Positions 22,772 through 58,832 of a stretch of DNA of 64,000 nucleotides are shown here, one piece after another. The position numbers and the translations under genes were made by a program. This DNA is from Clostridiales bacterium (GTDB taxonomy: Bacteria; Bacillota; Clostridia; Oscillospirales; CAG-272). The notes beneath the pieces were generated by a model. It made no database searches and was not told the DNA's origin. It worked only from the letters and a program-made list of their open reading frames with translations. The DNA is taken from assembly GCA_016288155.1 (NCBI GenBank), contig JAEEYP010000034.1, forward strand, positions 9,136-73,135, read 5' to 3'. Within the stretch, counting starts at the first letter, position 1; each line of letters begins with the position of its first letter.

Positions 22772-23734
22772 TTATCTGCCGAGGGAGGCGGCGCCGATGA
22801 TGCCGGCGTCATTGCCGAGCGCGGCGATGCAGAGCTTCGTCTTCGGCTCGCGGTCCTTCGTATAGACTTCCTTGAAGACGCGCTCGTTCAGCGGGTTGAG
22901 GAGGTAATCGCCCTCATGGCAGATGCCGCCGCCGATGGAGAGAACGTCCGGCTGGAAGATGTTGATCATGTTCGCAAGCCCGCAGGCGAGGGAATCGATA
23001 TACTCGTTCACGACCTCGAGACCTGCTTCGTCGCCCTGGCGGGCGGCGGCGAAAGCGGTCTTGCCGCTGATCTTCGTGAGATCTCCGCCGATCATCTCTT
23101 CCATGATCGTCTTGCGTCCGGCGGCGCGGCACGCTTCCAGCTTGTCCTTCGTCATGTTGATGAGTCCGGTCGCGGAGGAGTACGCTTCCCAGCAGCCGCG
23201 GCGTCCGCAGGAGCAGGGACGTCCGCCCTCGCGGATGACGGTGTGACCGAGCTCCGTTCCGGCGTAGTTGAAGCCGGAAAAAACCTTGCCCTCGAGGATC
23301 ACGCCGCCGCCGACGCCGGTGCCGAGCGTGATCATCACGGAATAGCGCGCGCCGCGGGCGACGCCTGCCATCGCTTCCGCTTTCGCCGCCGCGTTCGCGT
23401 CGTTCTCGATATAGACCTTCGTGCCGCCGAGGAGAGCGCTGAGTTTTTCGCACATCGGATACATGAAGAACGGGATGTTGTTCGCATACTCGATGACGCC
23501 GGTGGCGGTGTTGGCGGTACCGGGCGTCGCCATGCCGGCAAAGGAGATCTGATCCATCGTGAGACCGGCGTCCGCGACGATCTGCTTGCAGAGCGCGGCG
23601 ATATCGGCGGTGATCTCATCCGCAGGACGCTGGGCGTTCGTCGGGATGCTGCTCTTCTTGAGGATCCGGTAATCGGAATCCACGATACCGACGGCGATGT
23701 TCGTGCCGCCGAGGTCGATGCCAATACTGTACAT
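22772..23734 (-). CDS. glcK: ROK-family glucokinase
   Basis: Start MYSIGIDLGGTNIAVG after aggtga. ROK signature and zinc motif GHTVIREGGRPCSCGRRGCWEAY. The longer ORF-track N-terminus is not used. Confidence 0.85.
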   Translation of the reverse strand: MYSIGIDLGGTNIAVGIVDSDYRILKKSSIPTNAQRPADEITADIAALCKQIVADAGLTMDQISFAGMATPGTANTATGVIEYANNIPFFMYPMCEKLSALLGGTKVYIENDANAAAKAEAMAGVARGARYSVMITLGTGVGGGVILEGKVFSGFNYAGTELGHTVIREGGRPCSCGRRGCWEAYSSATGLINMTKDKLEACRAAGRKTIMEEMIGGDLTKISGKTAFAAARQGDEAGLEVVNEYIDSLACGLANMINIFQPDVLSIGGGICHEGDYLLNPLNERVFKEVYTKDREPKTKLCIAALGNDAGIIGAASLGR

Positions 23735-24303
23735 ACGTGTCACCTCATTTTCGTATTTCTTGGGGGCTGTGTTCATTATATATGTTTTTGAGGCGGCTGT
23801 CAACGGGTTTTGCAAAAAAGCGCGCCAAAGTAGCGGCGCACCGGCGCGGCATACGGCGAAAGCGACGAAAAACGGAAAAGAACAGGAAATACTGGGTGAA
23901 TATGGAAACAGACAGCCAAGCGAGGCCGACGAACAAATGATTTGTTTATTCTGTACATGTGTAGAAAAAACGGATCGGAAATTGTGCAATATGTACACAA
24001 CGTAAATTTTCCTCTGTTTTCCACAGGGAAAAGAGGGGAAAAGTCGAGCCCTGAATTATCATAATGATATTTACTATTTGTGATCGCATTGTGAATGACG
24101 CGCACAAGGCATGTGAAACGGGCGTGTATCCGGAATGAACGGTGAATGTCTCTCTTGTAATGATAAATACAATTTACCGCGTGCAGAAGACACGGGCTGT
24201 CGGGGGAAAAGGGGGAATTGAGCAAAAGTGACAACCGGGGCAAAAGCCGTCCGCGGGCAAACGGCGGGGCGGATCCGCCGCTTTCGGCGCATTTTCGCCG
24301 TTA

Positions 24304-24332
24304 TTGACTTTTGTACGATCTTGTGTTATGAT
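24304..24332 (+). promoter_or_regulatory. Sigma-A-type promoter of the 24.5-37 kb operon
   Basis: TTGACT, 17-nt spacer, TATGAT with TGT extended -10. This leaves a leader of about 230 nt before ATG 24567. Confidence 0.6.
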
Positions 24333-24566
24333 ATAGCATATAAAATGGTGGAGGAATCTGACGATTTTCCATCGTTTTCAGCGTGTCCGACCGAGCCGGG
24401 AGGCCCGGCGGCGCGCCCGCGTTCCCCGTTTTTCCGCCGACGCGCCCTTATTGTTGCGCGGCGGCACGCAAAATCCCTGAGTCAGTGGTCCGGCGGTCCC
24501 GGATCTCCGCCCTCGGGCGGTCCGCAGCCATTTCGCGCCGGATCAAAACAAGAGGAGGAAGCTCGT

Positions 24567-27500
24567 ATGAAAAACACCCGTTTCGGCAGGCTGATCGCGC
24601 TTTTGCTCGCCTTGCTGACGACGTTCGGCTGCGTCGTTCCGATCGCAGCCGCCGACGAGGATTCGTCGCAGTCGTCCGGCACGACGCTGAAGGAGATCAG
24701 CGAGACCCTGAATGCCATTTCCTACGCGCAGTACATGGAGCGCCATCCCGACGCCGTACGCGCCTCGAAGGAACTCAGCATTCCCATCACCGGTTTCAGC
24801 GCGGCGCTGACCACCGCCGCGGTGGAGGTACGCGCCAGCGTGACCGACGGCAACGGCGATTCGAGAACGAACTGCCTGTACGTCGGCGACACCGGGCGCG
24901 TCGTGTGGGAGATCGACGTTCCCGAGAGCGCGCTGTATGCGCTGGAGGTCGAGTACTGCTCGGAGTCCGAAAAAACGAACTCCATCGAGCGTATCCTATA
25001 CATCAACGATAAGGTGCCTTTCGCAGAGGCGCGTTATCTTCAGCTGACCAAAAACTGGGTCCACGGTTACCAGGAGGGCGTGTCCGGCTGGTACAATGCG
25101 GCGGAAGACATCAAGAAACAAAACGACAACCGTTCGGATCCGTCCGTCCTCGAAGGCATCCCGTTCAAGCGCGATACGCTCGGCAACGAGCTGCGCCCGA
25201 AGACGGTATGCACGCGCAAGTGGATGAAGCAGTCCTTCTACGATCCGAACGGCTGCTACCAGAATCCGCTGGAGTTCTACCTGGAGAAGGGAAAGAACAC
25301 CATAGCGTTTGAGTCCGTGCGCGAGGATATCGTCATCTCGGCGGTCCGCCTCTATCCGTACGAGCCGCTGCCGACGTATGCCGAGCTGGCGGGTCAGTAC
25401 TCTTCCAAGGGCTACAAGGAAGGATCGGATGAGATCTACATCGTCGGGGAGATGCCGTCTGCCGTAGCGCAGTATACGCTGTACCCCGTGTACGACCGCT
25501 CCTCCGCCATCACCGAGCCGCAGCACCCGACGAAGGTGCTTCTGAACACCATCGGTTCCGGCGGTTCTTCAGGTTCCAATAAATGGTCGACGTCCGGCGA
25601 GTGGATCGAATGGGAATTCGAGATCACAAGCGCGGGGCTTTATACGATCGCGCCTCGTTTCCGCCAGGCGGAAATGGACGGTCTGTACGTGTCCCGCCGC
25701 CTGTTCATCGACGGCAAGGTCCCGTGCGAGGAAGCGAACGCGTTCCGCTTCGGCTATTCCTCCGACTGGCAGATCGCCGCGCTGGGCGACGGCAACGGCA
25801 ACGCCTATCAGTTCTATCTTGAACCGGGCGTGCACACCATCCGCCTTGAGGTCACGCTCGGCGACATGGGCGTCATCGCCCGCCGCGTCAACGAGATGCT
25901 GAACAGCATCAACAAGTCCTACCTTGAGATCCTGAAGCTGACCGGCGCGGTCCCGGACGAGTACCGCGACTACGGCTTCAACCGCGTCATGCCCGATACG
26001 ATCGCCAACCTGCTCACGCAGAGCGTCGCGCTCCGCGAGATCATCGACTATCTGGAGATGATGAACGGCATCAAGAGCGAGTACTCCTCTACGCTCGAAC
26101 AGATCGCCAACCTGCTGGAGAAGATGGGCACGGACGAGGACGAGATCGCCAAGAACGTCAGCGACCTGAAGAGCTACGTCGGCTCTCTCGGTACGTGGGT
26201 CGCCAACATCTCCAAGCAGCCGCTCGAGATCGACTATATCCTCGTGCAGGCTGAGTCGAAGTCTTTGCCGAAGGCGGTCGCCGGGTTCTTCACGAACTTC
26301 TGGCATGAGATCAAGATGTTCTTCGGCTCTTTCTTCACCGATTACAACTCCCTCGGCGGTGAGACGTCGGTCGAGGAGCAGGGCTCCGTGATCGCATGGG
26401 TCTCGACCGGCCGTGACCAGGCGCAGATCATGCGCAGTCTGATCGACAACAAGTTTACGCCGACCTCCAACATCGCCGTCAGCCTGAAGCTCGTCGCGGG
26501 CGGCACGCTGCTTCCGTCCGTGCTCGCGGGCGCCGGTCCGGACGTCGCGCTGGACGGCGCGGACCCGATCAACTACGCGATCCGCGGCGCGGTCCTTCCG
26601 CTCAACGATTTCGATACGTTCGACGAGGTCGTCACGCGCTTCACGGAGGCCGCGCTGATCCCGCTGTCGCTGTACGGCAAGACCTACGCGCTGCCGGAAA
26701 CGCAGACCTTCTCCATGCTCTTCTACCGCAAGGACATCCTCGCGGACCTCGGCCTCGAGATCCCGAAGACGTGGGACGACATGCTCGCGATGGTCCCTGT
26801 CCTTCAATTTAATAATATGACGATCGGCCTGCCGAACGACTACACGCTCTTCATGTATCAGCGGGGCGGCGAGCTGTGGGTGGACGACGGCATGCGCATC
26901 AACCTCGACGCGAACACGTCGCTCGAGGCGTTCGAGGACATGTGCAACATGTTCACGCAGTATTCGCTGCCGTACTCCTACGACCTGGCGAACCGCTTCA
27001 AGACCGGCGAGATGCCGATCGGCATCGCCGGCTACACGACGTACAACCAGCTGATCCTCTTCGCCACCGAGATCGCCGGTCTGTGGGAGATGGCTCCTCT
27101 GCCCGGCACGATGGACGAGGACGGGAACATCAACAATCTTTCGATGTCCGGCTCCGCCGGTATCGTCATGATGAAGGACGCCGAGAGGACGGACAACAAG
27201 GAGAACGCGTGGCGCTTCATGGACTGGTGGGTCTCCCGTGACTTCCAGGTCGACTACGCGAACGAGCTCGTCGCCGTGCTCGGCCCCGCCGGCAAGCACG
27301 CGACCGCCAACGTCGAAGCGCTCGAGGAGCTGCCGTGGTCTTCCGAGGAATACAAGAACCTGCACGCGCAGATGATGAACCTCGCCGCGGTCACTCCGTA
27401 TCCGGGCAGCTACTTCGTCGGCCGTTATACGGGCTTCGCGTTCACCGACGCGTACAACAAGCATCTGGATCCCGTGGAGTCCCTGCTCAACTACATCAAC

Positions 27501-27794
27501 ACGATCAACAAGGAGATCACCCGTAAGAGAACGGAGTTCGATTTCGAGACCCTTGAGATCGGCCAGAAGCTCTCCGACAAGCGCATGGGTCAGGCTGAAG
27601 AGCTGATGAGCACGCTGAGCGGCTACGACGCGCAAATCGCCGCCGCCCGCGAAGCGATCGCCGCTTCCAGCATCGAAGGGCTGGATGCCGCCGCCGCCGC
27701 CTTCCGCGCGGCGGGCAGCGACGAGGCGGTGCAGCAGATCGCGACCTACCTCGAGGACGCCGCAGCGGCGCTCCGCTCCTATGAGAAGAACTGA
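24567..27794 (+). CDS. Giant (1075 aa) extracellular solute-binding protein: signal peptide, two CBM-like beta-sandwich modules, helical linker, family-1 SBP domain, C-terminal Ala-rich helices
   Basis: RBS aagaggaggaa. Signal peptide MKNTRFGRLIALLLALLTTFGC. Internally duplicated modules (VVWEIDVPESALYALEVEY...ILYINDKVPFAEA...FYLEKGKNTIAFE versus IEWEFEITSAGLYTIAPRF...RLFIDGKVPCEEA...FYLEPGVHTIRLE). The C-terminal half (GSVIAWVSTGRDQAQIMRSLIDNKF...YGKTYALPETQTFSMLFYRKDIL...) is typical of sugar SBPs. Confidence 0.8.
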   Translation: MKNTRFGRLIALLLALLTTFGCVVPIAAADEDSSQSSGTTLKEISETLNAISYAQYMERHPDAVRASKELSIPITGFSAALTTAAVEVRASVTDGNGDSRTNCLYVGDTGRVVWEIDVPESALYALEVEYCSESEKTNSIERILYINDKVPFAEARYLQLTKNWVHGYQEGVSGWYNAAEDIKKQNDNRSDPSVLEGIPFKRDTLGNELRPKTVCTRKWMKQSFYDPNGCYQNPLEFYLEKGKNTIAFESVREDIVISAVRLYPYEPLPTYAELAGQYSSKGYKEGSDEIYIVGEMPSAVAQYTLYPVYDRSSAITEPQHPTKVLLNTIGSGGSSGSNKWSTSGEWIEWEFEITSAGLYTIAPRFRQAEMDGLYVSRRLFIDGKVPCEEANAFRFGYSSDWQIAALGDGNGNAYQFYLEPGVHTIRLEVTLGDMGVIARRVNEMLNSINKSYLEILKLTGAVPDEYRDYGFNRVMPDTIANLLTQSVALREIIDYLEMMNGIKSEYSSTLEQIANLLEKMGTDEDEIAKNVSDLKSYVGSLGTWVANISKQPLEIDYILVQAESKSLPKAVAGFFTNFWHEIKMFFGSFFTDYNSLGGETSVEEQGSVIAWVSTGRDQAQIMRSLIDNKFTPTSNIAVSLKLVAGGTLLPSVLAGAGPDVALDGADPINYAIRGAVLPLNDFDTFDEVVTRFTEAALIPLSLYGKTYALPETQTFSMLFYRKDILADLGLEIPKTWDDMLAMVPVLQFNNMTIGLPNDYTLFMYQRGGELWVDDGMRINLDANTSLEAFEDMCNMFTQYSLPYSYDLANRFKTGEMPIGIAGYTTYNQLILFATEIAGLWEMAPLPGTMDEDGNINNLSMSGSAGIVMMKDAERTDNKENAWRFMDWWVSRDFQVDYANELVAVLGPAGKHATANVEALEELPWSSEEYKNLHAQMMNLAAVTPYPGSYFVGRYTGFAFTDAYNKHLDPVESLLNYINTINKEITRKRTEFDFETLEIGQKLSDKRMGQAEELMSTLSGYDAQIAAAREAIAASSIEGLDAAAAAFRAAGSDEAVQQIATYLEDAAAALRSYEKN

Positions 27795-27834
27795 TCCCGC
27801 GCTTTCCGAATAATCTGATAAAGGAGAAAACGCT

Positions 27835-28782
27835 ATGGCTAAAGATTCCCCCAAGAAGGAATTGACGCGCAACGAGATGACCAAAGCGCAGTGGACATGG
27901 TTCCAGATGAAGCGCTACAAGATCGCGTATTTCATGGTCGCGCCCTTCTTGATCCTCTTCTTCCTGTTTACCATCATTCCGGTCGCAGCCTCCCTGCTTC
28001 TGAGCCTGACCTCCTTCAACATGCTTCAGATGCCGAAGTTCCTCTTCCTTGATAACTACATCACGCTGTTCCTTGACGACGATCTGTGGATCATCGCGCT
28101 GAAGAATACGCTGATCTTCGCGGCGATCACCGGTCCGGCGTCGTACATCATCTCCTTCCTCGTCGCGTGGTTCATCAACGAGCTTTCCCCGAAGATCCGC
28201 GCGGTCGTCGTCCTGATCTTCTACGCGCCGTCCATTTCCGGACAGGTGTACCTGATCTGGCAGACGCTCTTCTCCTCGGACGCCTACGGCTGGGTCAACG
28301 CCCGCCTGCTCTCAATGGGGTTGATCGACGCGCCGATCCTGTGGTTCCAGAACGAAAGCTACGTCATGCCGCTCTGTATCATCGTTTCGCTCTGGACCTC
28401 CCTCGGCACCGCGTTCCTCTCCTTCATCGCAGGTCTTCAGGGCATCAACGTCAGCCTCTTCGAGGCGGGCGCGATGGACGGCATCAAGAACCGCTGGCAG
28501 GAACTGTGGTACGTGACGCTGCCGTCCATGAAGCCGCAGCTCGTGTTCGGCGCCGTCCTTTCCATCACCGGCGCGTTCGGCTACGGCGGTATCGTGAGCG
28601 CTCTCGCCGGCAGCCCCTCCGTCAACTACGTGGCTTATACGATCTCCCATCACTTGGCCGAATACGGGAGCACACGGTGGGAGGTAGGGTACGCCTCCGC
28701 GATCTCCTTCGTGCTGTTCTTACTCCAGATCGGGTCCAATATGGCGGTCAAGAAGCTGCTTGATAAGCTGGGTGGTGACTGA
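27835..28782 (+). CDS. ABC sugar-transporter permease (MalF/CUT1-type), pair 1
   Basis: 315 aa, about 6 TM segments. EAA loop FEAGAMDGIKNRWQELWYVTLPSMKP. Confidence 0.9.
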   Translation: MAKDSPKKELTRNEMTKAQWTWFQMKRYKIAYFMVAPFLILFFLFTIIPVAASLLLSLTSFNMLQMPKFLFLDNYITLFLDDDLWIIALKNTLIFAAITGPASYIISFLVAWFINELSPKIRAVVVLIFYAPSISGQVYLIWQTLFSSDAYGWVNARLLSMGLIDAPILWFQNESYVMPLCIIVSLWTSLGTAFLSFIAGLQGINVSLFEAGAMDGIKNRWQELWYVTLPSMKPQLVFGAVLSITGAFGYGGIVSALAGSPSVNYVAYTISHHLAEYGSTRWEVGYASAISFVLFLLQIGSNMAVKKLLDKLGGD

Positions 28783-28784
28783 TT

Positions 28785-29657
28785 ATGAAAAAACTGAGAA
28801 CAAGAAAACACCGCGTCGTTCTGAACCGCTCCGTCGGCGGCGACACGGGCATCACCATCGTCCTTGCGATCATGGGCGCGTTCATGTTCCTGCCGATGCT
28901 CTACACCGTCATGACCTCGCTCAAGCCGATCGATGAATTCTGGATCTTCCCGCCGCGTTTCTACGTGGTCAACCCGACGCTCGATAACTTCCGCAGCCTG
29001 TTCGCTCTGATGGGCGACTCCACGGTCCCGTTCTCCCGCTACATCTTCAATACGGTCTTCATCTCCGTGGCGGGCACGTTCGGCAACCTCGTGCTTTCCT
29101 CCATCGCCGCGTACGCGCTCGCAAAGATCCCGTTCCCGGGTCAGGGATGGATGTTCCGCCTGATCCGTACTTCCCTGATGTTCTCCTCCACTGTCGGCGG
29201 TATCGCGAGCTTCATCATCATGTCCATGCTCCACTGGATCGACACGTACTACGCCATCATCGTCCCGGCGTGGTGCTCGAGCCTGGGACTGTTCCTGATG
29301 AAGCAGTTCATGGATTCCCACGTCACGGCGGAGATCCTCGAGTCGGCACGCCTCGACGGCGCCACCGAGTTCAAGACCTTCTGGTCGATCGCCATGCCGA
29401 TGGTCAAGCCGGCGTGGCTGACGCTCATCATTTACTGCTTCCAGGGACTGTGGAACTCCGGCGCCTCGATCTTCATCTACAGTGAGCAGCTCAAGACGCT
29501 GAACTACGCCATCGGCCAGATCACGGCGGCAGGTTACGCGCGTGCGGGCGCTTCCGCCGCGGCGACGGTCGTCATGATGGCGGTCCCGATCATCGTCTTC
29601 GTCATCTCTCAGAGCAACATCGTGGAAACGATGGGTTCCAGCGGCATGAAGGACTAA
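28785..29657 (+). CDS. ABC sugar-transporter permease (MalG/CUT1-type), pair 1
   Basis: 290 aa. EAA loop ESARLDGATEFKTFWSIAMPMVKP. Starts 2 nt after the previous stop. Confidence 0.9.
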   Translation: MKKLRTRKHRVVLNRSVGGDTGITIVLAIMGAFMFLPMLYTVMTSLKPIDEFWIFPPRFYVVNPTLDNFRSLFALMGDSTVPFSRYIFNTVFISVAGTFGNLVLSSIAAYALAKIPFPGQGWMFRLIRTSLMFSSTVGGIASFIIMSMLHWIDTYYAIIVPAWCSSLGLFLMKQFMDSHVTAEILESARLDGATEFKTFWSIAMPMVKPAWLTLIIYCFQGLWNSGASIFIYSEQLKTLNYAIGQITAAGYARAGASAAATVVMMAVPIIVFVISQSNIVETMGSSGMKD

Positions 29658-29670
29658 GGAGGATAATAGA

Positions 29671-31812
29671 ATGAAAAGATTGGCAAGCATTCTGCTCTCC
29701 GTCATGGCGCTGATGACCGTGTTCTCCGCCGTGGCGGGCGCCGCGGCCCCCTATGCGACCTACACGTACTCGGCGGGCGGCTTCGTTCTGAACTCTCCGG
29801 AAGCGTACGTGCCGGACCGCGTGGTGGATTCCGTGTACATCGGCCTGCTCGATGAGGATGACGAGCTGCCGTTCGACGATCCGCGTGACCTCTTCGTCGA
29901 CCGCGACGAGAACGTCTACCTCGTCGATGCGAAGAACAACCGCGTCATCTGCATGGATCGGTACTACAAGTGGAAACTCATCATCAAGGATTTCGTCAAC
30001 GAGCAGGGCGTTCCGGACTCGTTCGCTGAGCCCTCCGGCGTCTTCGTCAACGAAAAGTACATCTACGTATGCGATACGAACAACAACCGCATCGTCATGT
30101 TCACCCGCGACGGTGAGTACTACCGGATCATCCCGCAGCCGGTCAGCGAGCTGTTCGACGAGGGCGCGATCTACAAGCCGATCGCCTGCGCGGTCGACAC
30201 CTACGGACGTCTCTTCGTCGTCTCCTCCACGACCTATCAGGGCATCATCGTCATGAGCGAGGACGGCGGCTTCTACGGCTTCATCGGCGCGCAGAAGGTC
30301 GAGATCTCCGCGCTGGAGGTGCTGTGGAGAAAGTTCCAGACGGACGCGCAGCGCGCCTACTCCCAGCGCTACGTCTCCACCGAGTTCAACAACATCACGA
30401 TCGATAAGGACAACTTCCTGTACGTGACGACCTCCTCCATCAGCGAGAGCTCGCAGCAGGCGGCCATCGAGAGCAAGGACGCGACGAACGCGCCGGTCAA
30501 GAAGCTCAACGCCTCCGGCGCGGACGTCATGAGACGGAACGGCTTCTTTGCTCCGGGCGGTGAGGTCAAGGTCTCCTACTCTCAGCTGGACGAGATCAAC
30601 GGTCCGTCCAAGATCATCGACGCGGCGTGCGGCCCGGAGGGCACGTGGTCCATCATCGATGAGAAGCGCTCGAAGATCTATACCTACGATAAAGACGGCA
30701 ACATGCTCTTCATCTTCGGCGACAAGGGCGTGCAGACCGGCAACATCGACTCCATCGAGGCGATCGCGTATCAGGGCGACAAGATCCTGGTGCTCGATAA
30801 GTCCAAGGACTGCTTCACCGTATACCGCCGCACCGAGTACGGCGATCTGCTCATCAACGCGCTGTACAACCAGAACCACCGCGTCTACGATTCCGCCGTC
30901 AGCGACTGGACGGAGATCCTCAAGCGCAACAACAACTACGACGCCGCCTACATCGGCATCGGCAAGTCGTTCTACCGCAGCGGCGATTACGAGCAGGCGA
31001 TGCACTACTACGAATACGCCTACGAGACGGAGAACTACTCCGCGGCGTTCAAGGAGATCCGCAAGAACTTCCTTTCCAAGTGGCTCGTGCCCGTCCTGAT
31101 CGGCTTCGTCCTCCTCATCTGGCTCATCACGAGATTCTTCGGCTACGCCGCCAAGATCAACAAGAAGGCGCAGCTGAAGGTGGGACGCAAGAGTCTCAAG
31201 GAGGAAATGCTCTATCCCTTCCACCTGATCTTCCATCCGTTCGACGGGTTCTGGGATCTGAAGCATGAAAAGCGCGGGTCGGGGCGCAGCGCCTTCCTCA
31301 TCCTCGTCATCACGGTCCTCGCGTTCTGCTATCAGTCCATCGGGACCGGCTACATCTTCAACCCGCGTCAGTCCGCGTATCTGAATGTCTTCGCACAGAT
31401 CCTCGCCGTGGTCGTACCGCTTGTGCTCTGGTGCGTCGCGAACTGGTGTCTGACGACGCTGTTCGAGGGCGAGGGCAGCCTCAAGGATATCTTCGTGGCG
31501 GCCTGCTACTCCCTCACGCCGCTGCCGCTGCTCATCATTCCGTCCGTCATCCTCTCCAACTTCCTGGCGCTGAACGAGGGACAGCTCATCACGCTGATGA
31601 ACTCCATCGCCTTCGTCTGGATGGGACTGCTCCTCTTCTTCGGAATGATGGTCACGCACGACTATTCCATCATCAAGAACATCACGACCTGCATCGCTAC
31701 GATCGTCGGCATGGCGTTCATCATGTTCATCGCCATCCTGTTCTCCACGCTGATGGCAAAGATCGTCAGCTTCATTTCCAGCATCGTGATCGAAATCAAC
31801 TACCGTCTATAA
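29671..31812 (+). CDS. Membrane protein: signal peptide, NHL-repeat beta-propeller, TPR, TM helix, Yip1-type polytopic domain
   Basis: NHL-like blades (DENVYLVDAKNNRVICMD; KYIYVCDTNNNRIVMFTRDGEY; GRLFVVSSTTYQGIIVMSEDG; GNMLFIFGDKG). TPR-like AYIGIGKSFYRSGDYEQAMHYYEYAY. C-terminal YPFHLIFHPFDGFWDLKHEKRGS followed by 5 TM helices is typical of Yip1-domain proteins. Confidence 0.7.
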   Translation: MKRLASILLSVMALMTVFSAVAGAAAPYATYTYSAGGFVLNSPEAYVPDRVVDSVYIGLLDEDDELPFDDPRDLFVDRDENVYLVDAKNNRVICMDRYYKWKLIIKDFVNEQGVPDSFAEPSGVFVNEKYIYVCDTNNNRIVMFTRDGEYYRIIPQPVSELFDEGAIYKPIACAVDTYGRLFVVSSTTYQGIIVMSEDGGFYGFIGAQKVEISALEVLWRKFQTDAQRAYSQRYVSTEFNNITIDKDNFLYVTTSSISESSQQAAIESKDATNAPVKKLNASGADVMRRNGFFAPGGEVKVSYSQLDEINGPSKIIDAACGPEGTWSIIDEKRSKIYTYDKDGNMLFIFGDKGVQTGNIDSIEAIAYQGDKILVLDKSKDCFTVYRRTEYGDLLINALYNQNHRVYDSAVSDWTEILKRNNNYDAAYIGIGKSFYRSGDYEQAMHYYEYAYETENYSAAFKEIRKNFLSKWLVPVLIGFVLLIWLITRFFGYAAKINKKAQLKVGRKSLKEEMLYPFHLIFHPFDGFWDLKHEKRGSGRSAFLILVITVLAFCYQSIGTGYIFNPRQSAYLNVFAQILAVVVPLVLWCVANWCLTTLFEGEGSLKDIFVAACYSLTPLPLLIIPSVILSNFLALNEGQLITLMNSIAFVWMGLLLFFGMMVTHDYSIIKNITTCIATIVGMAFIMFIAILFSTLMAKIVSFISSIVIEINYRL

Positions 31813-31831
31813 CAGGGAAAGGAGTAAAGGT

Positions 31832-34800
31832 ATGAAAAAGTTCAATAAGATCATTTCCGCTGTCCTGTCCCTGATTATGGCGCTCGGTACGCTGATACCG
31901 ATGACCGTGCAGCAGCCCGCGTACGCGGCGTACGCAGACAAGATCAACGAAGACGGCGACCCGATCATCAACTACATCACGAAAGCGTACCGCTCCCCCG
32001 AGGAAAAGCTCAGCGACATGATCTGCGTCAAGAAGCAGAACGGCCGCGAGATCTGGTTCGAGGAATTCACCGGCGAGATCTGCTTCGTCAATACGGAGAC
32101 CGGGCAGATGCTCTTCTCCAACCCGTGGGACGTCGCGGCCGACTACAACATCGCGTCGCGCGCGACGAAGCAGAAGCTGCTCTCCCAGCTTATGATCACG
32201 TACCTCGAAAACGGCGTGACGAAGCAGATGAACAGCTATGCGGACGCCGCCCTCCGCGGTCAGATCAAGCTGAAAAACATAAAGAACGGCGTTCGCGTCG
32301 AGTACACGATCGGCGAGGAGCAGACGATCCGCCTGGTCCCGCGTCTGATCCGCAAGGAGAGATTCGAGGAATTGATCCTCGCCTACCTTGACGACGACTG
32401 GATCCGCGGCAAGGTCGAAGCATTCTACACGCTGAAGGACCCGTTCGATCTGACGCTGACGGAGCGTGCGGTCAAGGAGATGCGCGCCCGCTTCCCGATC
32501 ACCGAGAAGATGGCCGTGTACGTCTGCGACCCGGATATCAAGCCGCGTGAGCTGGCGCAGGTCGAGCAGTACATCAAGACGTACTGCGTCTCCTACTCCT
32601 ACGAGGAACTGGACCGCGACCACGCCGAGACGAACTACACCGGCATGGACGCCGCGCCGCCGCTGTTCCGCATGGCGCTCGAATATTCGATCACCGCGGA
32701 CGGCGACCTTGAAGCGAGACTTCCCGCCAACGGTATCCGCTTCGACGAGTCTACCTACCAGCTGCAGACCGTCACGGTCCTCCCGTACTTCGGCACGGGC
32801 AGCAACAACTTCACCGGCTACACCTTCATTCCCGACGGTTCCGGCACGCTGATCCGCTTCGAGGACGTCAAGGGCTCCACCTACAACGTCTCGGGCGATC
32901 TGTACGGTCAGGACTACGCTTACCACAACATCAAGAGCCAGCACACGGAGATCATGAGACTGCCGGTCTACGGCATCGTCACGAACTACGAACTGTACGA
33001 CTACGTGTACGACGAAGACGGCAAGATCCAACTCGATGAGTTCAAGGACCCGGTCATGGTTTCCGAGGATCCGAAGCCGCAGGACGTCGGCTTCCTCGCG
33101 ATCATCACGGAGGGTGACTCGCTCGCATCCCTGATGAGCGAGCACGGCGGCTCTCTCCACTCCTTCAACACCGTATATCCGATGTTCACGCCTCGTCCGA
33201 GCGACCAGTACAACCTGAGCTCGTCGAAGAACGTCGGCGCGAACGCGACGTGGACGGTCACGTCGGAGCGTAAGTACACCGGCAGCTACCGGATCCTGTA
33301 CAAGATGCTCACCGACGACACGATCGCCGCGGAGAAGGGCATCAAGAAGTACTACGGCGCCGACTACTACGGCATGGCGGAAGCGTACCGCGATTACCTC
33401 TACGGCAACGGCACGCTGACGAAGCTGGAGGATACGACGGCGGACACGCCGCTGTACATCGAGACCTTCGGCTCCATGGAGACCACGAAGCGCATCCTCT
33501 CCTTCCCGGTCAGCGTCGACACGCCGCTGACGACGTTCGATGACATCAAGTCCATGTACACCGAGCTGACCGAAGCGGGCGTCGGCAGACTGAACTTCCG
33601 TCTGACCGGCTACGCGAACGGCGGCATGATCTCGACCGTGCCGTACCGCTTGAACTGGGTCAGCGTGGTCGGCGGCGCGGACGGCTTCACCGACCTCGTC
33701 CAGTACGCGGCGGAGAAGGGCTTCGGCGTGTTCCCGGACTTCGATTTCGAGTACGTCAGGACCACCGAGCTGTTCGACGGCATGAGCTACAGAAAGTACG
33801 CGGTCAAGACGATCGACGACCGGTACACCTCCAAGCGCTACTACGACGCGGCGACGCAGTCCTTCACGACGGACCGCTCGATCTGCATTTCCGCCTCCGC
33901 CTTCGAGCATTTCTACACCGGTCTGGCGGAGAACTACAAGAAGTACAACCCGACGGCGATCTCCGTGTCCACGCTCGGCACGGAGCTGAACTCCGACTTC
34001 GACGAGGACGAACCGTACAACCGCGAGGACGCCAAGGGCTTCACGATCGAGGTGCTGAAGCTGATCGACGCCGACTATAAGGACGTCATGATCGACGGCG
34101 GCAACTCCTACGCGCTCGCATACGCCAACCACATCATGAAGCTCTCGACGAACAGCTCCCGCTTCCTGCAGGCGAGCGAGGCGATCCCGTTCATGGGCAT
34201 CGTCCTCCACGGCGCGAAGTACTTCACCGGCAGCCCGATCAACATGGAGGGCGACATCGAGTCCGCCATCCTGAAGGCGATCGAGAACGGCGCCAGCCTG
34301 TACTTCGTCCTCTCCAAGCAGAACACGAACGAACTGAAGGAATCCGTATCGCTGAGCAAGTACTATTCCGTTTCCTACGACATCTGGAAGGATGAGGTCA
34401 TCAAGTACTACACGATCCTCAACGACGCACTGAAGGATCTGCAGACCTCGCTGATCGTCGAGCACGAGTTCCTCTACGGCGAGCGCATCCCGGATCCGGA
34501 TGAGCAAGAGGCCGATCAGATCGCCCTCGAAGAGCAGATGGCTGAGGAAGCCGCCGCGGCTGAGAAGCAGAAGAAGGACGAGGAGCGCGCCGCCAAGTAC
34601 GCGGAGCTGCACGGAACGTCGGTTTCTTCCGGTTCTTCCGGCGTCGGCGTGTACGTTCCCGTGGAAGAGGAGACGGAGACGGAGACTGAGGAGGTCAAAG
34701 AAGCTTACGTGAAGACCAAGTACACGACGACGAAGGGTTCCGTTATCCGCGTCGGGTACGAGGGCGGCACGAACTTCCTGCTCAACTACAATTCCTTCGA

Positions 34801-34867
34801 CGTTACCGTTCAGTATAACGGCACGACCTACACGATCGCCGCGCTCGGCTTCGTGAAGATCGGCTGA
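31832..34867 (+). CDS. 1011-aa secreted protein of unknown function (from memory resembles proteins annotated DUF5696)
   Basis: Signal peptide MKKFNKIISAVLSLIMALGTLIPMTVQQPAYA. I recognise no catalytic motif. Acidic, coiled segment near the C-terminus (EQEADQIALEEQMAEEAAAAEKQKKDEERAAKYAE). Confidence 0.6.
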   Translation: MKKFNKIISAVLSLIMALGTLIPMTVQQPAYAAYADKINEDGDPIINYITKAYRSPEEKLSDMICVKKQNGREIWFEEFTGEICFVNTETGQMLFSNPWDVAADYNIASRATKQKLLSQLMITYLENGVTKQMNSYADAALRGQIKLKNIKNGVRVEYTIGEEQTIRLVPRLIRKERFEELILAYLDDDWIRGKVEAFYTLKDPFDLTLTERAVKEMRARFPITEKMAVYVCDPDIKPRELAQVEQYIKTYCVSYSYEELDRDHAETNYTGMDAAPPLFRMALEYSITADGDLEARLPANGIRFDESTYQLQTVTVLPYFGTGSNNFTGYTFIPDGSGTLIRFEDVKGSTYNVSGDLYGQDYAYHNIKSQHTEIMRLPVYGIVTNYELYDYVYDEDGKIQLDEFKDPVMVSEDPKPQDVGFLAIITEGDSLASLMSEHGGSLHSFNTVYPMFTPRPSDQYNLSSSKNVGANATWTVTSERKYTGSYRILYKMLTDDTIAAEKGIKKYYGADYYGMAEAYRDYLYGNGTLTKLEDTTADTPLYIETFGSMETTKRILSFPVSVDTPLTTFDDIKSMYTELTEAGVGRLNFRLTGYANGGMISTVPYRLNWVSVVGGADGFTDLVQYAAEKGFGVFPDFDFEYVRTTELFDGMSYRKYAVKTIDDRYTSKRYYDAATQSFTTDRSICISASAFEHFYTGLAENYKKYNPTAISVSTLGTELNSDFDEDEPYNREDAKGFTIEVLKLIDADYKDVMIDGGNSYALAYANHIMKLSTNSSRFLQASEAIPFMGIVLHGAKYFTGSPINMEGDIESAILKAIENGASLYFVLSKQNTNELKESVSLSKYYSVSYDIWKDEVIKYYTILNDALKDLQTSLIVEHEFLYGERIPDPDEQEADQIALEEQMAEEAAAAEKQKKDEERAAKYAELHGTSVSSGSSGVGVYVPVEEETETETEEVKEAYVKTKYTTTKGSVIRVGYEGGTNFLLNYNSFDVTVQYNGTTYTIAALGFVKIG

Positions 34868-34883
34868 GAAAGGGGAGCCAGCT

Positions 34884-35861
34884 ATGAATGCATCGAAATC
34901 CAAGAATGACGATATCTTCACCGGTTCGTCAAAAAAGAGGAAACGCGGCGCTTCCCTGGACGTAAGGAAAGCGCGTGCCGGCTGGTGGTTCGTGATGCCG
35001 TTCATCATCGGCATCGTGATCCTCTACATCCCGATCGTGTTCGACTCGATCAAGTACAGCTTCCATGAGATCAAGATCCTCACCGGCGGCGGCTTCAAGC
35101 TCAACTGGGTCGGCCTCAAGAACTACAGCGACGCGCTGTTCGTCGATCCCACCTACGTACAGACACTCGTGACCGGCATCAAACAGCTCATCGTCGACAT
35201 CCCCGCCATCGTGATCTTCGCGCTGTTCGTGGCGATCCTCCTCAACGGGAAGATCGCCGGACGCGCGGCGTTCCGTGCCATCTTCTTCATCCCCGTCCTT
35301 CTGACGACCGGTCTGATCGCGGACATCGACAACCAGAACATCCTGGCGACCGCGATGGAAGGCGCGGAGATCGACACCGGTACCGGAGAAAGCGCCGTTG
35401 CGCAAATTGTGTCGGTCATGGACGTGCAGGCACTGTTCAGCAACATGATGGTCGGTACGGAACTCGTTGAATACGTTGTCAACCTCGTCAACAACATCTT
35501 CAACATCATCAACCGCTCCGGCGTCCAGATGATGATCTTCCTCGCAGGCCTCCAGTCCATCTCCCCCGCGATCTACGAGTCTTGCTCCATCGACGGCGCG
35601 TCCGGTTGGGAAACCTTCTGGAAGATCACGCTCCCGATGGTCAGCCCGATGATCCTCGTCAACACGGTGTACACGGTCATCGACTCGTTCACCTCGTCGT
35701 CCAACCGCGTGATGTCGTACATCAGCAGCGTGTACGCATCCTCGAGCGGGCAGGTCCTCTCCTCGGCGATGTCCTGGATGTACTTCCTCATCGTTATGAT
35801 CATCATCGCCGCGGTAGCCGGACTGCTCAGCCTGTTCGTGTTCTATCAAAGAAGAGATTAA
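34884..35861 (+). CDS. ABC sugar-transporter permease (MalF-type), pair 2
   Basis: 325 aa. EAA loop ESCSIDGASGWETFWKITLPMVSP. Confidence 0.9.
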   Translation: MNASKSKNDDIFTGSSKKRKRGASLDVRKARAGWWFVMPFIIGIVILYIPIVFDSIKYSFHEIKILTGGGFKLNWVGLKNYSDALFVDPTYVQTLVTGIKQLIVDIPAIVIFALFVAILLNGKIAGRAAFRAIFFIPVLLTTGLIADIDNQNILATAMEGAEIDTGTGESAVAQIVSVMDVQALFSNMMVGTELVEYVVNLVNNIFNIINRSGVQMMIFLAGLQSISPAIYESCSIDGASGWETFWKITLPMVSPMILVNTVYTVIDSFTSSSNRVMSYISSVYASSSGQVLSSAMSWMYFLIVMIIIAAVAGLLSLFVFYQRRD

Positions 35862-35879
35862 GGAAAGGAGGAGCATAGA

Positions 35880-36944
35880 ATGAATAAGGTCGAAACCGCA
35901 CCGAAGATCACAAAGGAAACGAAGAATTCGATCCGCGTGGATTTTGAAAGGACGCCGCTTCTCGAACGCCTCAAGGCGCGCTTCGTGAACGTGTACTTCT
36001 TCCAGAAGGTCCTGGTCTACGTTTTCAAGTTCCTCTTCCTGCTCGGCATCTCGTACGTCATCCTGTTCCCGTTCTACTCGAAGATCTCCTCCTCCTTCAT
36101 GAGCGCCGAGGACTTCGTCGACGTCACGGTCAACATGGTGCCGCGTCACCCGACGCTCGCCACCTACAAGGCGATCATCCTGGACAACAACTACTGGAAG
36201 GCGTTTCTGAACACGCTGCTCCTCGCGGGCTCCTGCGCGATACTGCAGACGTTCGTCTGCTGTCTCGTCGGCTACGGCTTTGCGAAGTTCAAATTCAAGG
36301 GCAACGGAATTCTGTTCCTGGTCGTCATCTTCACGATGATCGTCCCGCATCAGACGCTCCAGCTCTCCATGTTCATGAAGTTCCGCTACTTCGACATAGG
36401 CATCGGGAAGTTCAGTATCTTCAACTTCCTCGGCGGAGGCTTGATCGACTCAGTCAACGTATTGAAGGATCCGTGGCTGAGGCTGATCAATACCTTCTGG
36501 CCGCTCATCATCCTCTCCGCCACCGGTCTTGCCTTCAAGAACGGTCTGTACATCTTCATGATGCGCTCGTTCTTCAAGGGCATCCCGGATGAGCTCGAGG
36601 AATCCGCCTACCTGGACGGCTCCGGCACGTTCCGCACCTTCGTGCAGATCATCCTGCCGCTGTCCATCCCGATGCTCATCACGGTCTTCATGTTCGCCTT
36701 CTCCTGGCAGTGGACGGACAACTATTACACGACCGTTTTCTTCACGACGACCGGTCCGCTGCTGATGCCGAAGATCGTCAAGGTGCCGAAATCGCTGAAC
36801 ACCGCTTACGCCGGCTCGAACATGTATGAGGCCGCGATCCGCAACACCTGCGGCATCCTCATCCTCCTGCCGCTGCTCATCCTCTACACCTTCATGCAGA
36901 GGTTCATCGTGCAGGGCATCGAGCGTTCCGGCATCACCGGCTGA
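35880..36944 (+). CDS. ABC sugar-transporter permease (MalG-type), pair 2, with extended N-terminus and an extra loop
   Basis: 354 aa. EAA loop ESAYLDGSGTFRTFVQIILPLSIP. Segment FRYFDIGIGKFSIFNFLGGGLIDSVNVLKDPWLRLINT has no counterpart in the pair-1 MalG-type protein. Confidence 0.85.
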   Translation: MNKVETAPKITKETKNSIRVDFERTPLLERLKARFVNVYFFQKVLVYVFKFLFLLGISYVILFPFYSKISSSFMSAEDFVDVTVNMVPRHPTLATYKAIILDNNYWKAFLNTLLLAGSCAILQTFVCCLVGYGFAKFKFKGNGILFLVVIFTMIVPHQTLQLSMFMKFRYFDIGIGKFSIFNFLGGGLIDSVNVLKDPWLRLINTFWPLIILSATGLAFKNGLYIFMMRSFFKGIPDELEESAYLDGSGTFRTFVQIILPLSIPMLITVFMFAFSWQWTDNYYTTVFFTTTGPLLMPKIVKVPKSLNTAYAGSNMYEAAIRNTCGILILLPLLILYTFMQRFIVQGIERSGITG

Positions 36945-36976
36945 CGCGTCGTCTGCCGCTTACCGCATCCCATCTC

Positions 36977-37010
36977 AGAGGAGAGACCGTCCGGTCTCTC
37001 CTCTTTCTTT
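36977..37010 (+). terminator. Rho-independent terminator closing the operon
   Basis: gaggagagaccg-tc-cggtctctcctc followed by tttcttt. Confidence 0.85.
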
Positions 37011-37080: not shown

Positions 37081-37109
37081 TTGATTTATCGGGAAATTTT
37101 TGCTATACT
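37081..37109 (+). promoter_or_regulatory. Sigma-A-type promoter of hisS-aspS
   Basis: TTGATT, 17-nt spacer, TATACT. The leader to ATG 37158 is only about 45 nt. Confidence 0.65.
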
Positions 37110-43372: not shown

Positions 43373-44500
43373 ATGGGACACGCAGAATTGAAGGAATGGA
43401 CGCTGCTCTCGCCGCTGCCGGATCTGTTTGAGAAGGACGACGGCGGACGCATCGCGGCGCCGGAGGAATGGGCGGCGCAGCGCGAGCGGATCTATCGCCT
43501 GGGCGTCGGCATGCAGTACGGCGGGATGCCGCCGGAACCGGAGTTCGTCGAGGTCGAGCTTCTGCATCCCGGCTCGTCGCTGAACACGTATCGCATCCAT
43601 ACGGGAAAGCGGGAGAAGCCGGTCACCTTTATCATGCAGACGATCGTCCCGAAGGACGCGAAGAATTGCCCCGTCGTCATCGACGGCGACGGCTGCTTCC
43701 CGTACGTGTACCGGGACGACGTGCTGAAAGAATTTGAGAACGCGGGCGTCGCTTTCGTCCGCTTCAACCGGACGGAGATCGTGCACGACGACTATAGGGC
43801 GGACCGAAATCACGGGCTGTACGAGGTCTATCCGGAGTACACGTTCAGCGCGCTCGCCGCGTGGGCGTGGGGCTTCCACCGCTGCACGGACGCCGTTCTG
43901 CAGCTCGGATTCGCCGATCCGAACTGGATCGCCTATACGGGACACTCCCGCGGCGGGAAGACGGCGCTCCTCGCGGGCGCGACGGATCCGCGCGCGGCGG
44001 TCGTGAACCCGAACGGGAGCGGCACCGCCGGCGCGGCGTGCTACCGCCTCCGCTCAAAGACTCTCGCCGAGGACGGGAGCGAGGAAGTGAGCGAACCGCT
44101 CTCCTACCTTCTCGGCGCCGTTCCGTACTGGCTCGGGCCGGAAATGAAGGAGTACGGCGACCGGGAGGACGAGCTTCCTTTCGACTCGCATTTCCTCAAG
44201 GCGCTCGTCGCTCCGCGCATCCTGCTCTGCACGGACGCGCTTTCCGACGGCTGGGCGAATCCGCTCGGCACCTATATGACGTCGAAGGCGGCGAAGGAAG
44301 TGTTCCGCTTCCTCGGCGCGGAGGATCATATCATGAACCGCTACCGCGAGGGCGTCCACTGCCACACGCCGGACGACGTGCGGATCCTGCTCAACGTGAT
44401 CGCGCATTTCCGCTCCGGCGCGCCGCTGGACGAGACGATCAACCATACGCCCTTCGACGCGATCCCGCCGGTGCACACGTGGCATTGCCCGGAAAAATAA
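43373..44500 (+). CDS. CE15-like glucuronoyl esterase / alpha-beta hydrolase, no signal peptide
   Basis: 375 aa. AYTGHSRGGKTALLAG matches the CE15 G-x-S-R-x-G-K nucleophile motif. C-terminal histidine region REGVHCHTPDD. Confidence 0.6.
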   Translation: MGHAELKEWTLLSPLPDLFEKDDGGRIAAPEEWAAQRERIYRLGVGMQYGGMPPEPEFVEVELLHPGSSLNTYRIHTGKREKPVTFIMQTIVPKDAKNCPVVIDGDGCFPYVYRDDVLKEFENAGVAFVRFNRTEIVHDDYRADRNHGLYEVYPEYTFSALAAWAWGFHRCTDAVLQLGFADPNWIAYTGHSRGGKTALLAGATDPRAAVVNPNGSGTAGAACYRLRSKTLAEDGSEEVSEPLSYLLGAVPYWLGPEMKEYGDREDELPFDSHFLKALVAPRILLCTDALSDGWANPLGTYMTSKAAKEVFRFLGAEDHIMNRYREGVHCHTPDDVRILLNVIAHFRSGAPLDETINHTPFDAIPPVHTWHCPEK

Positions 44501-58687: not shown

Positions 58688-58720
58688 ATGTTTACTCTCC
58701 ATTCTGTTGTCATTACGGGA

Positions 58721-58749
58721 ATTATAGCATATCTTCGGCGGCGTGTCAA
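58721..58749 (-). promoter_or_regulatory. Sigma-A-type promoter of the GH27-rhodanese / beta-helix-PDZ operon
   Basis: Minus strand reads TTGACA, 17-nt spacer, TATAAT. Confidence 0.7.
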
Positions 58750-58832
58750 CGGAAAAGAGCGATCTCGCAGTCACAGGGACGTGCCGCCGCGCATACAGAT
58801 AGAAGGCAGAACCAACAAAAGGGGGGGATCCG

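Follow-up and report, generated by a model that had tools for sequence, protein, structure and literature searches.

The closest described relatives of the system reported here are the ATP-binding cassette (ABC) importers of the CUT1 (carbohydrate uptake transporter 1) type, among which MalEFGK2, MsmEFGK, and UgpBAEC with its shared MsmX-type ATPase. They are built on a family-1 solute-binding protein (SBP) and on MalF- and MalG-like permeases, each marked by an EAA loop. It is established that, in Firmicutes, MsmX-type ATPases are shared among importers that are otherwise independent. In Gram-positive polysaccharide utilisation loci (gpPULs), the gene for a degradative enzyme shares one locus with those for a transporter and a regulator. 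The 64,000-nt stretch of DNA analysed in this work, hereafter called the window, derives from contig JAEEYP010000034.1 (assembly GCA_016288155.1) of a Clostridiales bacterium, and contains an operon of seven genes, G1 to G7, which resembles these systems only in part. We favour, with some reserve, the view that the operon encodes an extended CUT1 ABC system, conserved and co-transcribed, for the capture, trimming and import of a carbohydrate, which probably carries alpha-linked sugars. The single parts belong to known superfamilies. Novelty resides in the fixed seven-gene architecture, in its spread among Bacillota, and in what appears to be a hidden glycosidase family. The genes and the signals delimiting the operon are the following.

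24304-24332, + strand: sigma-A-type promoter, TTGACT-17-TATGAT, with an extended -10 TG (motif scan; conserved in related loci)
24567..27794, + strand: G1, 1075-aa secreted receptor (Pfam, PDB sequence matches, AlphaFold2 model and Foldseek)
27835..28782, + strand: G2, permease 1a, MalF/UgpA-type, 315 aa, six transmembrane (TM) segments, EAA loop FEAGAMDG (Pfam, NCBIfam, hydropathy)
28785..29657, + strand: G3, permease 1b, MalG/UgpE-type, 290 aa, EAA loop ESARLDGA (Pfam, NCBIfam, hydropathy)
29671..31812, + strand: G4, 713-aa membrane protein (Pfam, PDB sequence matches, hydropathy)
31832..34867, + strand: G5, 1011-aa secreted DUF5696 protein (Pfam, Foldseek, barrel profile)
34884..35861, + strand: G6, permease 2a, MalF/UgpA-type, 325 aa, EAA loop ESCSIDGA (Pfam, NCBIfam, hydropathy)
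35880..36944, + strand: G7, permease 2b, MalG/UgpE-type, 354 aa, EAA loop ESAYLDGS (Pfam, NCBIfam, hydropathy)
36977-37010 (stem 36977-37004), + strand: intrinsic terminator, 12-bp stem (7 G-C), loop of 4, T-run (scan)

The seven genes form one operon. They span positions 24567-36944, are separated, from G1 to G7, by 40, 2, 13, 19, 16 and 18 nt, and are each preceded by a GGAGG-type ribosome-binding site (Shine-Dalgarno). Coordinates and lengths of the open reading frames (ORFs) agree exactly with those of the original prediction, an earlier reading of the window from its sequence. One tightly coupled operon with one promoter and one terminator had been proposed there, and gaps, promoter and terminator bear this out. 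The domain identities then assigned to the seven proteins were likewise recovered by Pfam (SBP, BPD_transp_1, NHL/TPR/Yip1, DUF5696), the TPR matches staying below cut-off. G1 starts at ATG 24567, which has an AGGAGGA Shine-Dalgarno upstream and opens a frame of 1075 aa encoding a signal peptide; the mechanical ORF start, GTG 24228, was discarded in its favour. The promoter corresponds to a block (CTTGACA...TATGnTATTAT) conserved in the alignment of 36 related loci, and the terminator is the best one in an 18-kb scan. No credible promoter or terminator was found by scanning the interior of the operon. Terminator-like matches in it are weak (5-8 pairs, poor T-runs), and the total of 22 is hardly above the 13 +/- 4 expected by chance from shuffled sequence; a split of the operon into unrelated units by internal signals, envisaged in the original prediction, finds no support. 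Downstream are hisS and aspS, and hisS begins at 37158 behind a promoter-like site of its own (37081-37109). The window is 62% G+C, and the G+C content at third codon positions (GC3) of the operon, 0.84-0.89, is the same as that of the neighbours; hence, there is no sign of recent import.

The seven genes have been together in this order since before the divergence of Bacilli and Clostridia. One genome per species was scanned by pattern; 386 genomes host a G5 relative, and the best 80 loci were compared. In 63 of the 80, the complete set of seven is found, collinear and on a single strand; the remaining 17 loci end at contig boundaries, and no contrary order was seen. Gene order is unchanged in a divergent metagenome lineage in which G5 carries an insertion of ~530 aa. 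Compared with the window proteins, the median identity amounts to 70-74% for the first permease pair (G2/G3), 65-67% for the second (G6/G7), 61% for G4, 53% for G5 and 52% for G1. The membrane parts are best conserved, and divergence is fastest in G1 and G5, which are extracellular, as expected of substrate-contacting parts. The cassette resides also in two cultured organisms, which belong to different classes, Butyrivibrio fibrisolvens D1 (plasmid pNP243) and Paenibacillus cellulosilyticus (megaplasmid), and in both copies every window gene finds its best match in its positional counterpart. G2 is 53% identical to the product of the first MalF-like gene in Butyrivibrio and 41% in Paenibacillus; the figures for G6 and the second MalF-like gene are 40% and 33%. 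Across classes of Bacillota the identity of G5 falls to 25-27%, the order being still kept. The original prediction had stated that oversized SBPs, Yip1 proteins and DUF5696 proteins co-occur in other Firmicutes, and had reckoned with an arrangement conserved in no relative. The statement holds in a stronger form, since the full seven-gene order is maintained, both in the 63 loci and in the two cultured organisms.

The surroundings of the cassette are not maintained. The flanks of the 80 loci are made of variable housekeeping genes, and no conserved ATPase, glycoside hydrolase (GH) or regulator gene was found in them. ROK kinase, nifS/nifU-like, SipL, hisS/aspS and alaS genes are neighbours of the operon in the window and in many loci from metagenome-assembled genomes (MAGs). 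In Paenibacillus, a ugpC/MsmX-type ATPase gene is found immediately upstream of the gene of the big SBP. In the Butyrivibrio copy, the SBP gene overlaps at its start with a GH43 gene, and genes for a histidine kinase and a response regulator lie divergently upstream, a composition usual for glycan-utilisation loci; directly 3' of the second permease pair are two genes for ordinary lipoprotein SBPs. As gpPULs, the operon combines in one transcription unit a candidate glycosidase, G5, and a sugar ABC transporter, and the Butyrivibrio copy shares with them also the adjoining GH43 and two-component genes. The locus in the window differs from gpPULs in having no regulator gene and in a cassette that is fixed in its seven genes across classes; gpPULs are usually mosaics specific to a lineage.

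Two entries of the survey stand apart. Contig JAGARL010000319.1 (locus L011) is labelled as belonging to an archaeon, Methanocorpusculum sp., and carries a complete bacterial cassette with coordinates and identities nearly equal to those of the Oscillospiraceae locus L009; the contig is almost certainly mis-binned. In assembly JAFUQN01, two contigs (L022 and L080) encode G5 homologues, 53% and 57% identical to the window G5, which may stem from paralogous cassettes within a single genome or from a mixture of strains.

In G1, a family-1 sugar SBP is joined to two modules resembling the carbohydrate-binding modules (CBMs) of families 6 and 35. A signal peptide is followed by two CBM6/35-like beta-sandwiches (residues ~50-265 and ~345-430), a helical bundle (432-549), the CUT1 family-1 solute-binding domain (~600-990) and a helical C-terminal tail. 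SBP_bac_1 of Pfam matches residues 621-892 (E 1e-20, 75 bits versus a cut-off of 26), SBP_bac_8 matches as well (together 621-910), and the PDB sequence matches are sugar SBPs, e.g. Lin1841, MBP and NagB2. G1 has therefore the traits of the family-1 (cluster B) extracellular SBP of a CUT1 importer. The presence of CBM-like modules, suggested in the original prediction, is supported at the fold level. In the AlphaFold2 (AF2) model both sandwiches (predicted local distance difference test, pLDDT, 80-90) and the helical bundle are confident, and according to Foldseek the sandwiches resemble CBM35, CBM6 and CBM22 modules. Some G1 homologues match the CBM_35, CBM_6 or Golvesin_C models of Pfam. Mean pLDDT over the whole protein is 60. 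The AF2 models of G1 and G5 were built on alignments of 26 and 22 sequences, respectively, and the low overall confidence of both is due to such shallow alignments. Residues 19-22 of G1, TFGC, are lipobox-like, and LxGC is found in the 8 closest homologues only. The remaining 18 of the 26 aligned G1 sequences lack the lipobox, as do the Butyrivibrio and Paenibacillus orthologues, whereas the ordinary SBPs adjoining the Butyrivibrio cluster do carry it. The N-terminal signal sequence is the sole hydrophobic feature detected in G1 by hydropathy.

The four permeases match BPD_transp_1 above the Pfam cut-off, and UgpA/UgpE/MalF/MalG-type models of NCBIfam as well. The EAA loops noticed earlier in all four, by which such permeases couple to an ABC ATPase, are readable in the translations, so that a MalF-like and a MalG-like subunit, each with its EAA loop, occur twice, as G2/G3 and as G6/G7. 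G6 and G7 feature additional loops, extracytoplasmic in G6 (~147-205), at ~156-205 in G7. The original prediction spoke of a duplicated translocator, which is misleading. G2 and G6 share 29% identity over 107 residues, G3 and G7 23%, and in the cultured organisms each gene finds its best match in its positional counterpart; a recent duplication was therefore rejected. Judged from their sequences, G2/G3 and G6/G7 are distinct, ancient lineages of the MalFG type. Neither LSGGQ nor Walker A, the motifs of ABC ATPases, was found anywhere in the 64-kb window, which therefore does not encode the MalK/MsmX/UgpC-type ATPase of a CUT1 importer, and no ATPase gene adjoins the cassette at 80 MAG loci. 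Supply of the ATPase in trans, as assumed in the original prediction and as in CUT1 importers, is plausible, because the Paenibacillus cluster, in which the enzyme is encoded in cis, has the ugpC gene directly upstream of the SBP gene. Marked differences from known CUT1 importers reside elsewhere. A single SBP accompanies two non-identical permease pairs; this SBP is 2.5 times the normal size, carries two CBM-like modules and a helical bundle, and in most lineages is apparently not a lipoprotein; two large proteins which are not transporter components are intercalated between the pairs, in fixed order.

G5 is best described as a candidate alpha-glycosidase belonging to a new family related to GH129 and GH101. 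From N- to C-terminus, the protein comprises a beta-rich domain, a (beta/alpha)8-barrel, a coiled linker of acidic character and a small beta domain. Hydropathy revealed a cleavable signal peptide only, and neither a membrane nor a wall anchor was recognised. G5 belongs to DUF5696 (PF18952; 460.7 bits versus a cut-off of 25.6, E 1e-137). No other Pfam family, GH families included, was matched by G5 in hmmscan at E <= 10; in the same search DUF6259 was weakly matched by 5 of 22 homologues. Since no other Pfam model matched, G5 is not a member of GH129 by sequence, and should be regarded as a remote relative of GH129/GH101. Two lines of evidence support the relationship. The model of G5 was compared to PDB structures by Foldseek. 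The top 11 matches are all GH129 enzymes (E 7e-16 to 2e-11, probability 1.0), led by Zobellia DagB/ZgGH129 (E 7e-16), with Bifidobacterium NagBb at E about 1e-12; GH101 endo-alpha-GalNAcases come next, followed by GH13, GH36 and GH31 barrels. The second line is provided by profiles. The single G5 sequence had no match in PDB, and full-length profiles reached NagBb with E 0.03-0.09 only; a profile restricted to the barrel (residues 505-885, 15 sequences) matched NagBb with E 7e-5, the sole significant PDB match. A motif near barrel strands 2-3 (NFRLTGYANGG versus LHLDGWAQPGYDNG) is collinear in the two proteins, and in a second collinear segment of the barrel profile the invariant VLHG strand of G5 aligns with VYHD of NagBb. 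The best structural matches, NagBb (5WZN), DagB/ZgGH129 (5OPQ) and EngBF (2ZXQ), share with G5 the three-domain layout of GH129, with beta domains at either end of the barrel. In DagB/ZgGH129, likewise, a TIM barrel lies between an N- and a C-terminal beta domain (PMC5698469). G5 differs from all of them for an identity of ~10% in structural alignments, a greater length and the acidic coiled linker. The G5 model is poor (mean pLDDT 55) and TM-scores are low (0.29-0.40); hence, the assignment of the barrel rests on the E-values and on a modest profile match. In the original prediction no glycoside hydrolase was recognised in the operon, and the 1011-aa protein was called an orphan. The former statement is true of domain names only, as G5 is GH129/GH101-like by fold; the latter gives way, on the strength of Foldseek and of the barrel profile, to a remote candidate glycosidase of the GH129/GH101 type.

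Residues D335, D361, D458, R731, N758, H793 and N804 are invariant, and E544, D638, D662, D722 and E818 near-invariant, in 60 sequences of the G5 family sharing 37-52% identity. GH129 enzymes use as nucleophile D435 in NagBb and D486 in ZgGH129, and the acid/base of NagBb is E478. D722 of G5, located in a SDFD motif, is Asp in 56 of the 60 sequences and is collinear with the nucleophile position, of which it is the likeliest counterpart as far as alignments tell. The acid/base position of NagBb is not conserved. The equivalent G5 position (~D755) is variable (D in 29, S in 12, E in 11 and N in 6 sequences); the NagBb acid/base is absent from ZgGH129 too (PMC5698469). DUF5696 is a very large family, including 5025 clusters at 50% identity (E <= 1e-3). 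YetA of Bacillus subtilis, encoded in the rhamnogalacturonan locus beside lplABCD, may belong to it as well. Many members are 1200-2500 aa long, and their big C-terminal or internal extensions are nearly blank in Pfam, with one HL_N-beta and one Big_2 match.

G4 is a polytopic membrane protein of the Yip1 type provided with a predicted extracellular NHL propeller and TPR. Hydropathy suggests that a signal peptide precedes the extracellular NHL beta-propeller and TPR, which are followed by a TM helix (472-490), a cytoplasmic motif and the five-TM Yip1 domain. G4 belongs to Yip1 (PF04893) with 54.1 bits versus a cut-off of 28.6 (E 2e-14, residues 518-688), and the five hydrophobic segments detected within 536-691 fit a five-helix Yip1 domain. 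NHL scored 30.3 bits versus a cut-off of 20, and TPR matches are weak and below cut-offs. Residues 62-241 match in PDB the NHL propellers of TRIM71, Brat, Thin and, weakly, PknD; TPR structures were matched also. G4 homologues are nearly constant in length (~695-712 aa). No cytoplasmic output domain could be recognised by Pfam. The cytoplasmic motif, HPFDGFWDLKxEKRGS, is conserved, and coincides with the point at which the gene is split in Butyrivibrio. On pNP243 of B. fibrisolvens (L083, 9690-11785), NHL/TPR and Yip1 are encoded by two genes overlapping by 22 nt, either a true split or a frameshift. As G4, YknW of Bacillus subtilis is a bacterial Yip1 protein genetically coupled to an ABC transporter (YknWXYZ). 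YknXYZ is however an exporter-type system with a membrane-fusion protein, and YknW lacks propeller and TPR, whereas the permeases flanking G4 are of the importer type. The literature searched for Yip1 together with SBP or sugar ABC components contained nothing relevant. No published study of the operon was found either, so that characterised orthologues of the large proteins, by which the original prediction could have been overturned, have not emerged.

In the model proposed, the CBM-like modules of G1 would bind a polymer, or a large oligosaccharide, at the cell surface, G5 would hydrolyse the glycan outside the cell, and the SBP domain of G1 would hand the products to the translocators. Both translocators may be powered by a shared ATPase of the MsmX/UgpC type encoded elsewhere, and may import two classes, or sizes, of products. 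G4 could act as a membrane-embedded organiser, holding the unanchored G5, and in most lineages G1 as well, beside the permeases. Expression would be controlled by a regulator encoded in trans, which binds conserved DNA blocks upstream of the promoter. The closest functional analogy for such capture, cleavage and import is provided by the Sus-like utilisomes of Bacteroidota (SusCD, surface glycan-binding proteins, surface glycosidase). Proteins are however unrelated, there is no outer membrane, energy would come from ATP and not from TonB, and a physical complex is here hypothetical. According to a bolder version, the products of the operon and an MsmX-type ATPase encoded in trans make one surface supercomplex, a Gram-positive equivalent of the utilisome, in which Yip1 of G4 bridges both translocators and the NHL/TPR part docks G1 and G5, DUF5696 being a new GH family of the GH101/GH129 lineage with a new alpha-glycosidase specificity. 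This version may be entertained, but we hold it as rather doubtful.

Several observations weigh against an extended CUT1 system. The models of G1 and G5 are poor overall, and the TM-scores of the latter are low. The acid/base-equivalent position of G5 is variable. The operon includes neither an ATPase nor a regulator gene, and flanking genes are mostly housekeeping and unconserved. No publication on DUF5696 or PF18952 was found in the literature searched. The catalytic residues of G5 are not mappable, and one may wonder whether G5, the ectodomain of G4, or both, are non-catalytic, lectin-like or sensor modules gating or regulating the transporters. The extracellular NHL propeller of mycobacterial PknD, weakly matched by G4, is a sensor domain, and YknW of B. 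subtilis acts as modulator of an ABC transporter. Yet, seven invariant polar and several near-invariant acidic residues in 60 sequences form the kind of pattern that active sites typically show, all the closest structural relatives of G5 are active glycosidases, and G4 has no recognisable cytoplasmic output domain. Of the scenarios examined, a non-catalytic role is the one to which we give least credit.

The operon may alternatively host two independent ABC importers on a shared transcript, G1-G3 being complete, G6-G7 depending on a SBP encoded elsewhere, and G4 and G5 being loose accessories. The two normal-sized lipoprotein SBPs encoded directly after pair 2 fit this scheme and represent, for Butyrivibrio, a more conventional answer to the question of the receptor. 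Threading of the polymer through the propeller, and a service of G4 and G5 as non-canonical receptors for pair 2, both put forward in the original prediction, are speculative. In addition, pairs sharing 23-29% identity could differ in substrates and partners, and MsmX-type ATPases are shareable by independent importers. However, the strict G1-G7 order and the near-zero spacing, maintained across classes of Bacillota, are hard to explain without functional coupling, and a SBP-like match 3' of G7 was detected just once, and weak, among the 80 loci. We consider independent importers unlikely. A different function could be envisaged for the module, namely recycling of a glycopolymer from the cell's own envelope, be it wall polysaccharide, S-layer or spore glycan, trimmed by G5 and recovered as sugars by the transporters. 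The location among housekeeping and sporulation genes in the window and in many MAG loci, the absence of a conserved dedicated regulator or of neighbouring carbohydrate-active enzymes (CAZymes), a composition equal to that of the host genome, and the apparently wide inheritance of the module in the lineage, as 386 species genomes have a G5 relative, are all in line with it. Nutrient uptake is favoured, in turn, by the plasmid or megaplasmid location of the module in cultured hosts, and by the GH43 and two-component genes beside the Butyrivibrio copy, typical of nutrient loci. Moreover, modules of the CBM6/35-like kind are typically found in binders of plant or algal glycans, and the two contigs of JAFUQN01 hint at paralogous specificities, as in utilisation loci. 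Envelope recycling seems quite improbable.

If the capture, trimming and import of glycans by an extended CUT1 system is the correct interpretation, DUF5696 would represent a new glycoside hydrolase family, and G1 a new class of CBM-fused ABC receptors, mostly non-lipoprotein. G4 would provide the first role of a bacterial Yip1-propeller protein in nutrient uptake. The system would be a model for surface glycan processing coupled to import in many uncultured gut Firmicutes, which lack Sus systems. DUF5696 sits centrally in a cassette order-conserved from soil Paenibacillus to rumen and human-gut Clostridia. As B. fibrisolvens and P. cellulosilyticus are culturable and carry orthologous clusters, these predictions are directly testable.

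Three further features are located upstream of the operon.

23959..23988, + strand: conserved upstream element GTGTAGAAAAAA-n9-AAATTGTGCA, candidate regulator-binding site (related-locus comparison)
24163..24177, + strand: palindrome ATAAAT-ACA-ATTTAC, operator-like (matches conserved GTAAAT-n3-ATTTAC)
22772-23734, - strand: ROK gene, kinase-type (glucokinase-like), ~320 aa (start ATG 23734, GAGGTG ribosome-binding site)

In most related loci (L001-L077), the upstream element precedes the start of G1 by ~520-720 nt. It is unique in the 64-kb window, and had 0 matches in 100 shuffles. A longer block extends around it (23935-24000; aATTTGTGCA..GTGTAGAAAA..AAATTTGTGCA). The conserved non-coding region reads aATTTGTGCA-n-GTGTAGAAAAAA-n9-AAATTTGTGCA, then GTAAAT-n3-ATTTAC palindromes, then the promoter. 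Two palindromes occur between upstream element and promoter in the consensus of the 36 aligned upstream regions. The window has one match which, taken alone, is not above chance, as one or more were found in 31 of 100 shuffles. Further upstream, two TTTGTGCA boxes flank GTGTAGAAAA in the same alignment. Taken together, the conserved blocks look like a multi-site operator, and control by a DNA-binding regulator encoded in trans is probably the simplest reading of the pattern. The ROK protein was rejected as regulator of the operon, since it consists of the ROK domain only, without helix-turn-helix, and its gene is adjacent in only 16 of the 80 loci. The 408-aa ROK ORF is an over-extension, the true start being ATG 23734, and the gene has a perfect TTGACA-17-TATAAT promoter at 23803-23775 (- strand). 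The minus strand has, just upstream of this promoter, a terminator-like hairpin (23842-23819), and no gene that it might serve is evident. A riboswitch or leader RNA in the 235-nt 5' untranslated region of the operon is unsupported, as no Rfam family matched at E <= 1 and the fold z-score is -1.45. For genomes in which G1 proteins are only ~50% identical, the DNA of the G1 ribosome-binding site and start (24548-24569; GCAGGAGGAAGGTTCTATG, in 36 of 63 loci) is unusually well conserved.

Farther upstream of the operon, the segment 8660-22704 (+ strand) encodes a 1759-aa bacterial alpha-2-macroglobulin-like protein with Big_5, a GH92 alpha-mannosidase, an acetylesterase of the SASA type, a 1173-aa protein in which SLH domains are the only ones recognised, and a SipL/LysM sporulation protein. 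These upstream genes are not conserved beside the cassette elsewhere, with the exception of SipL and ROK in some genomes. Other CAZyme-like genes of the window map at 57095-58774 (- strand), 43373-44500 (+ strand) and 54945-57068 (- strand); the set includes a GH27 alpha-galactosidase with an unusual C-terminal rhodanese fusion, a CE15-type glucuronyl esterase and a beta-helix protein. The source organism seems to degrade plant glycans.

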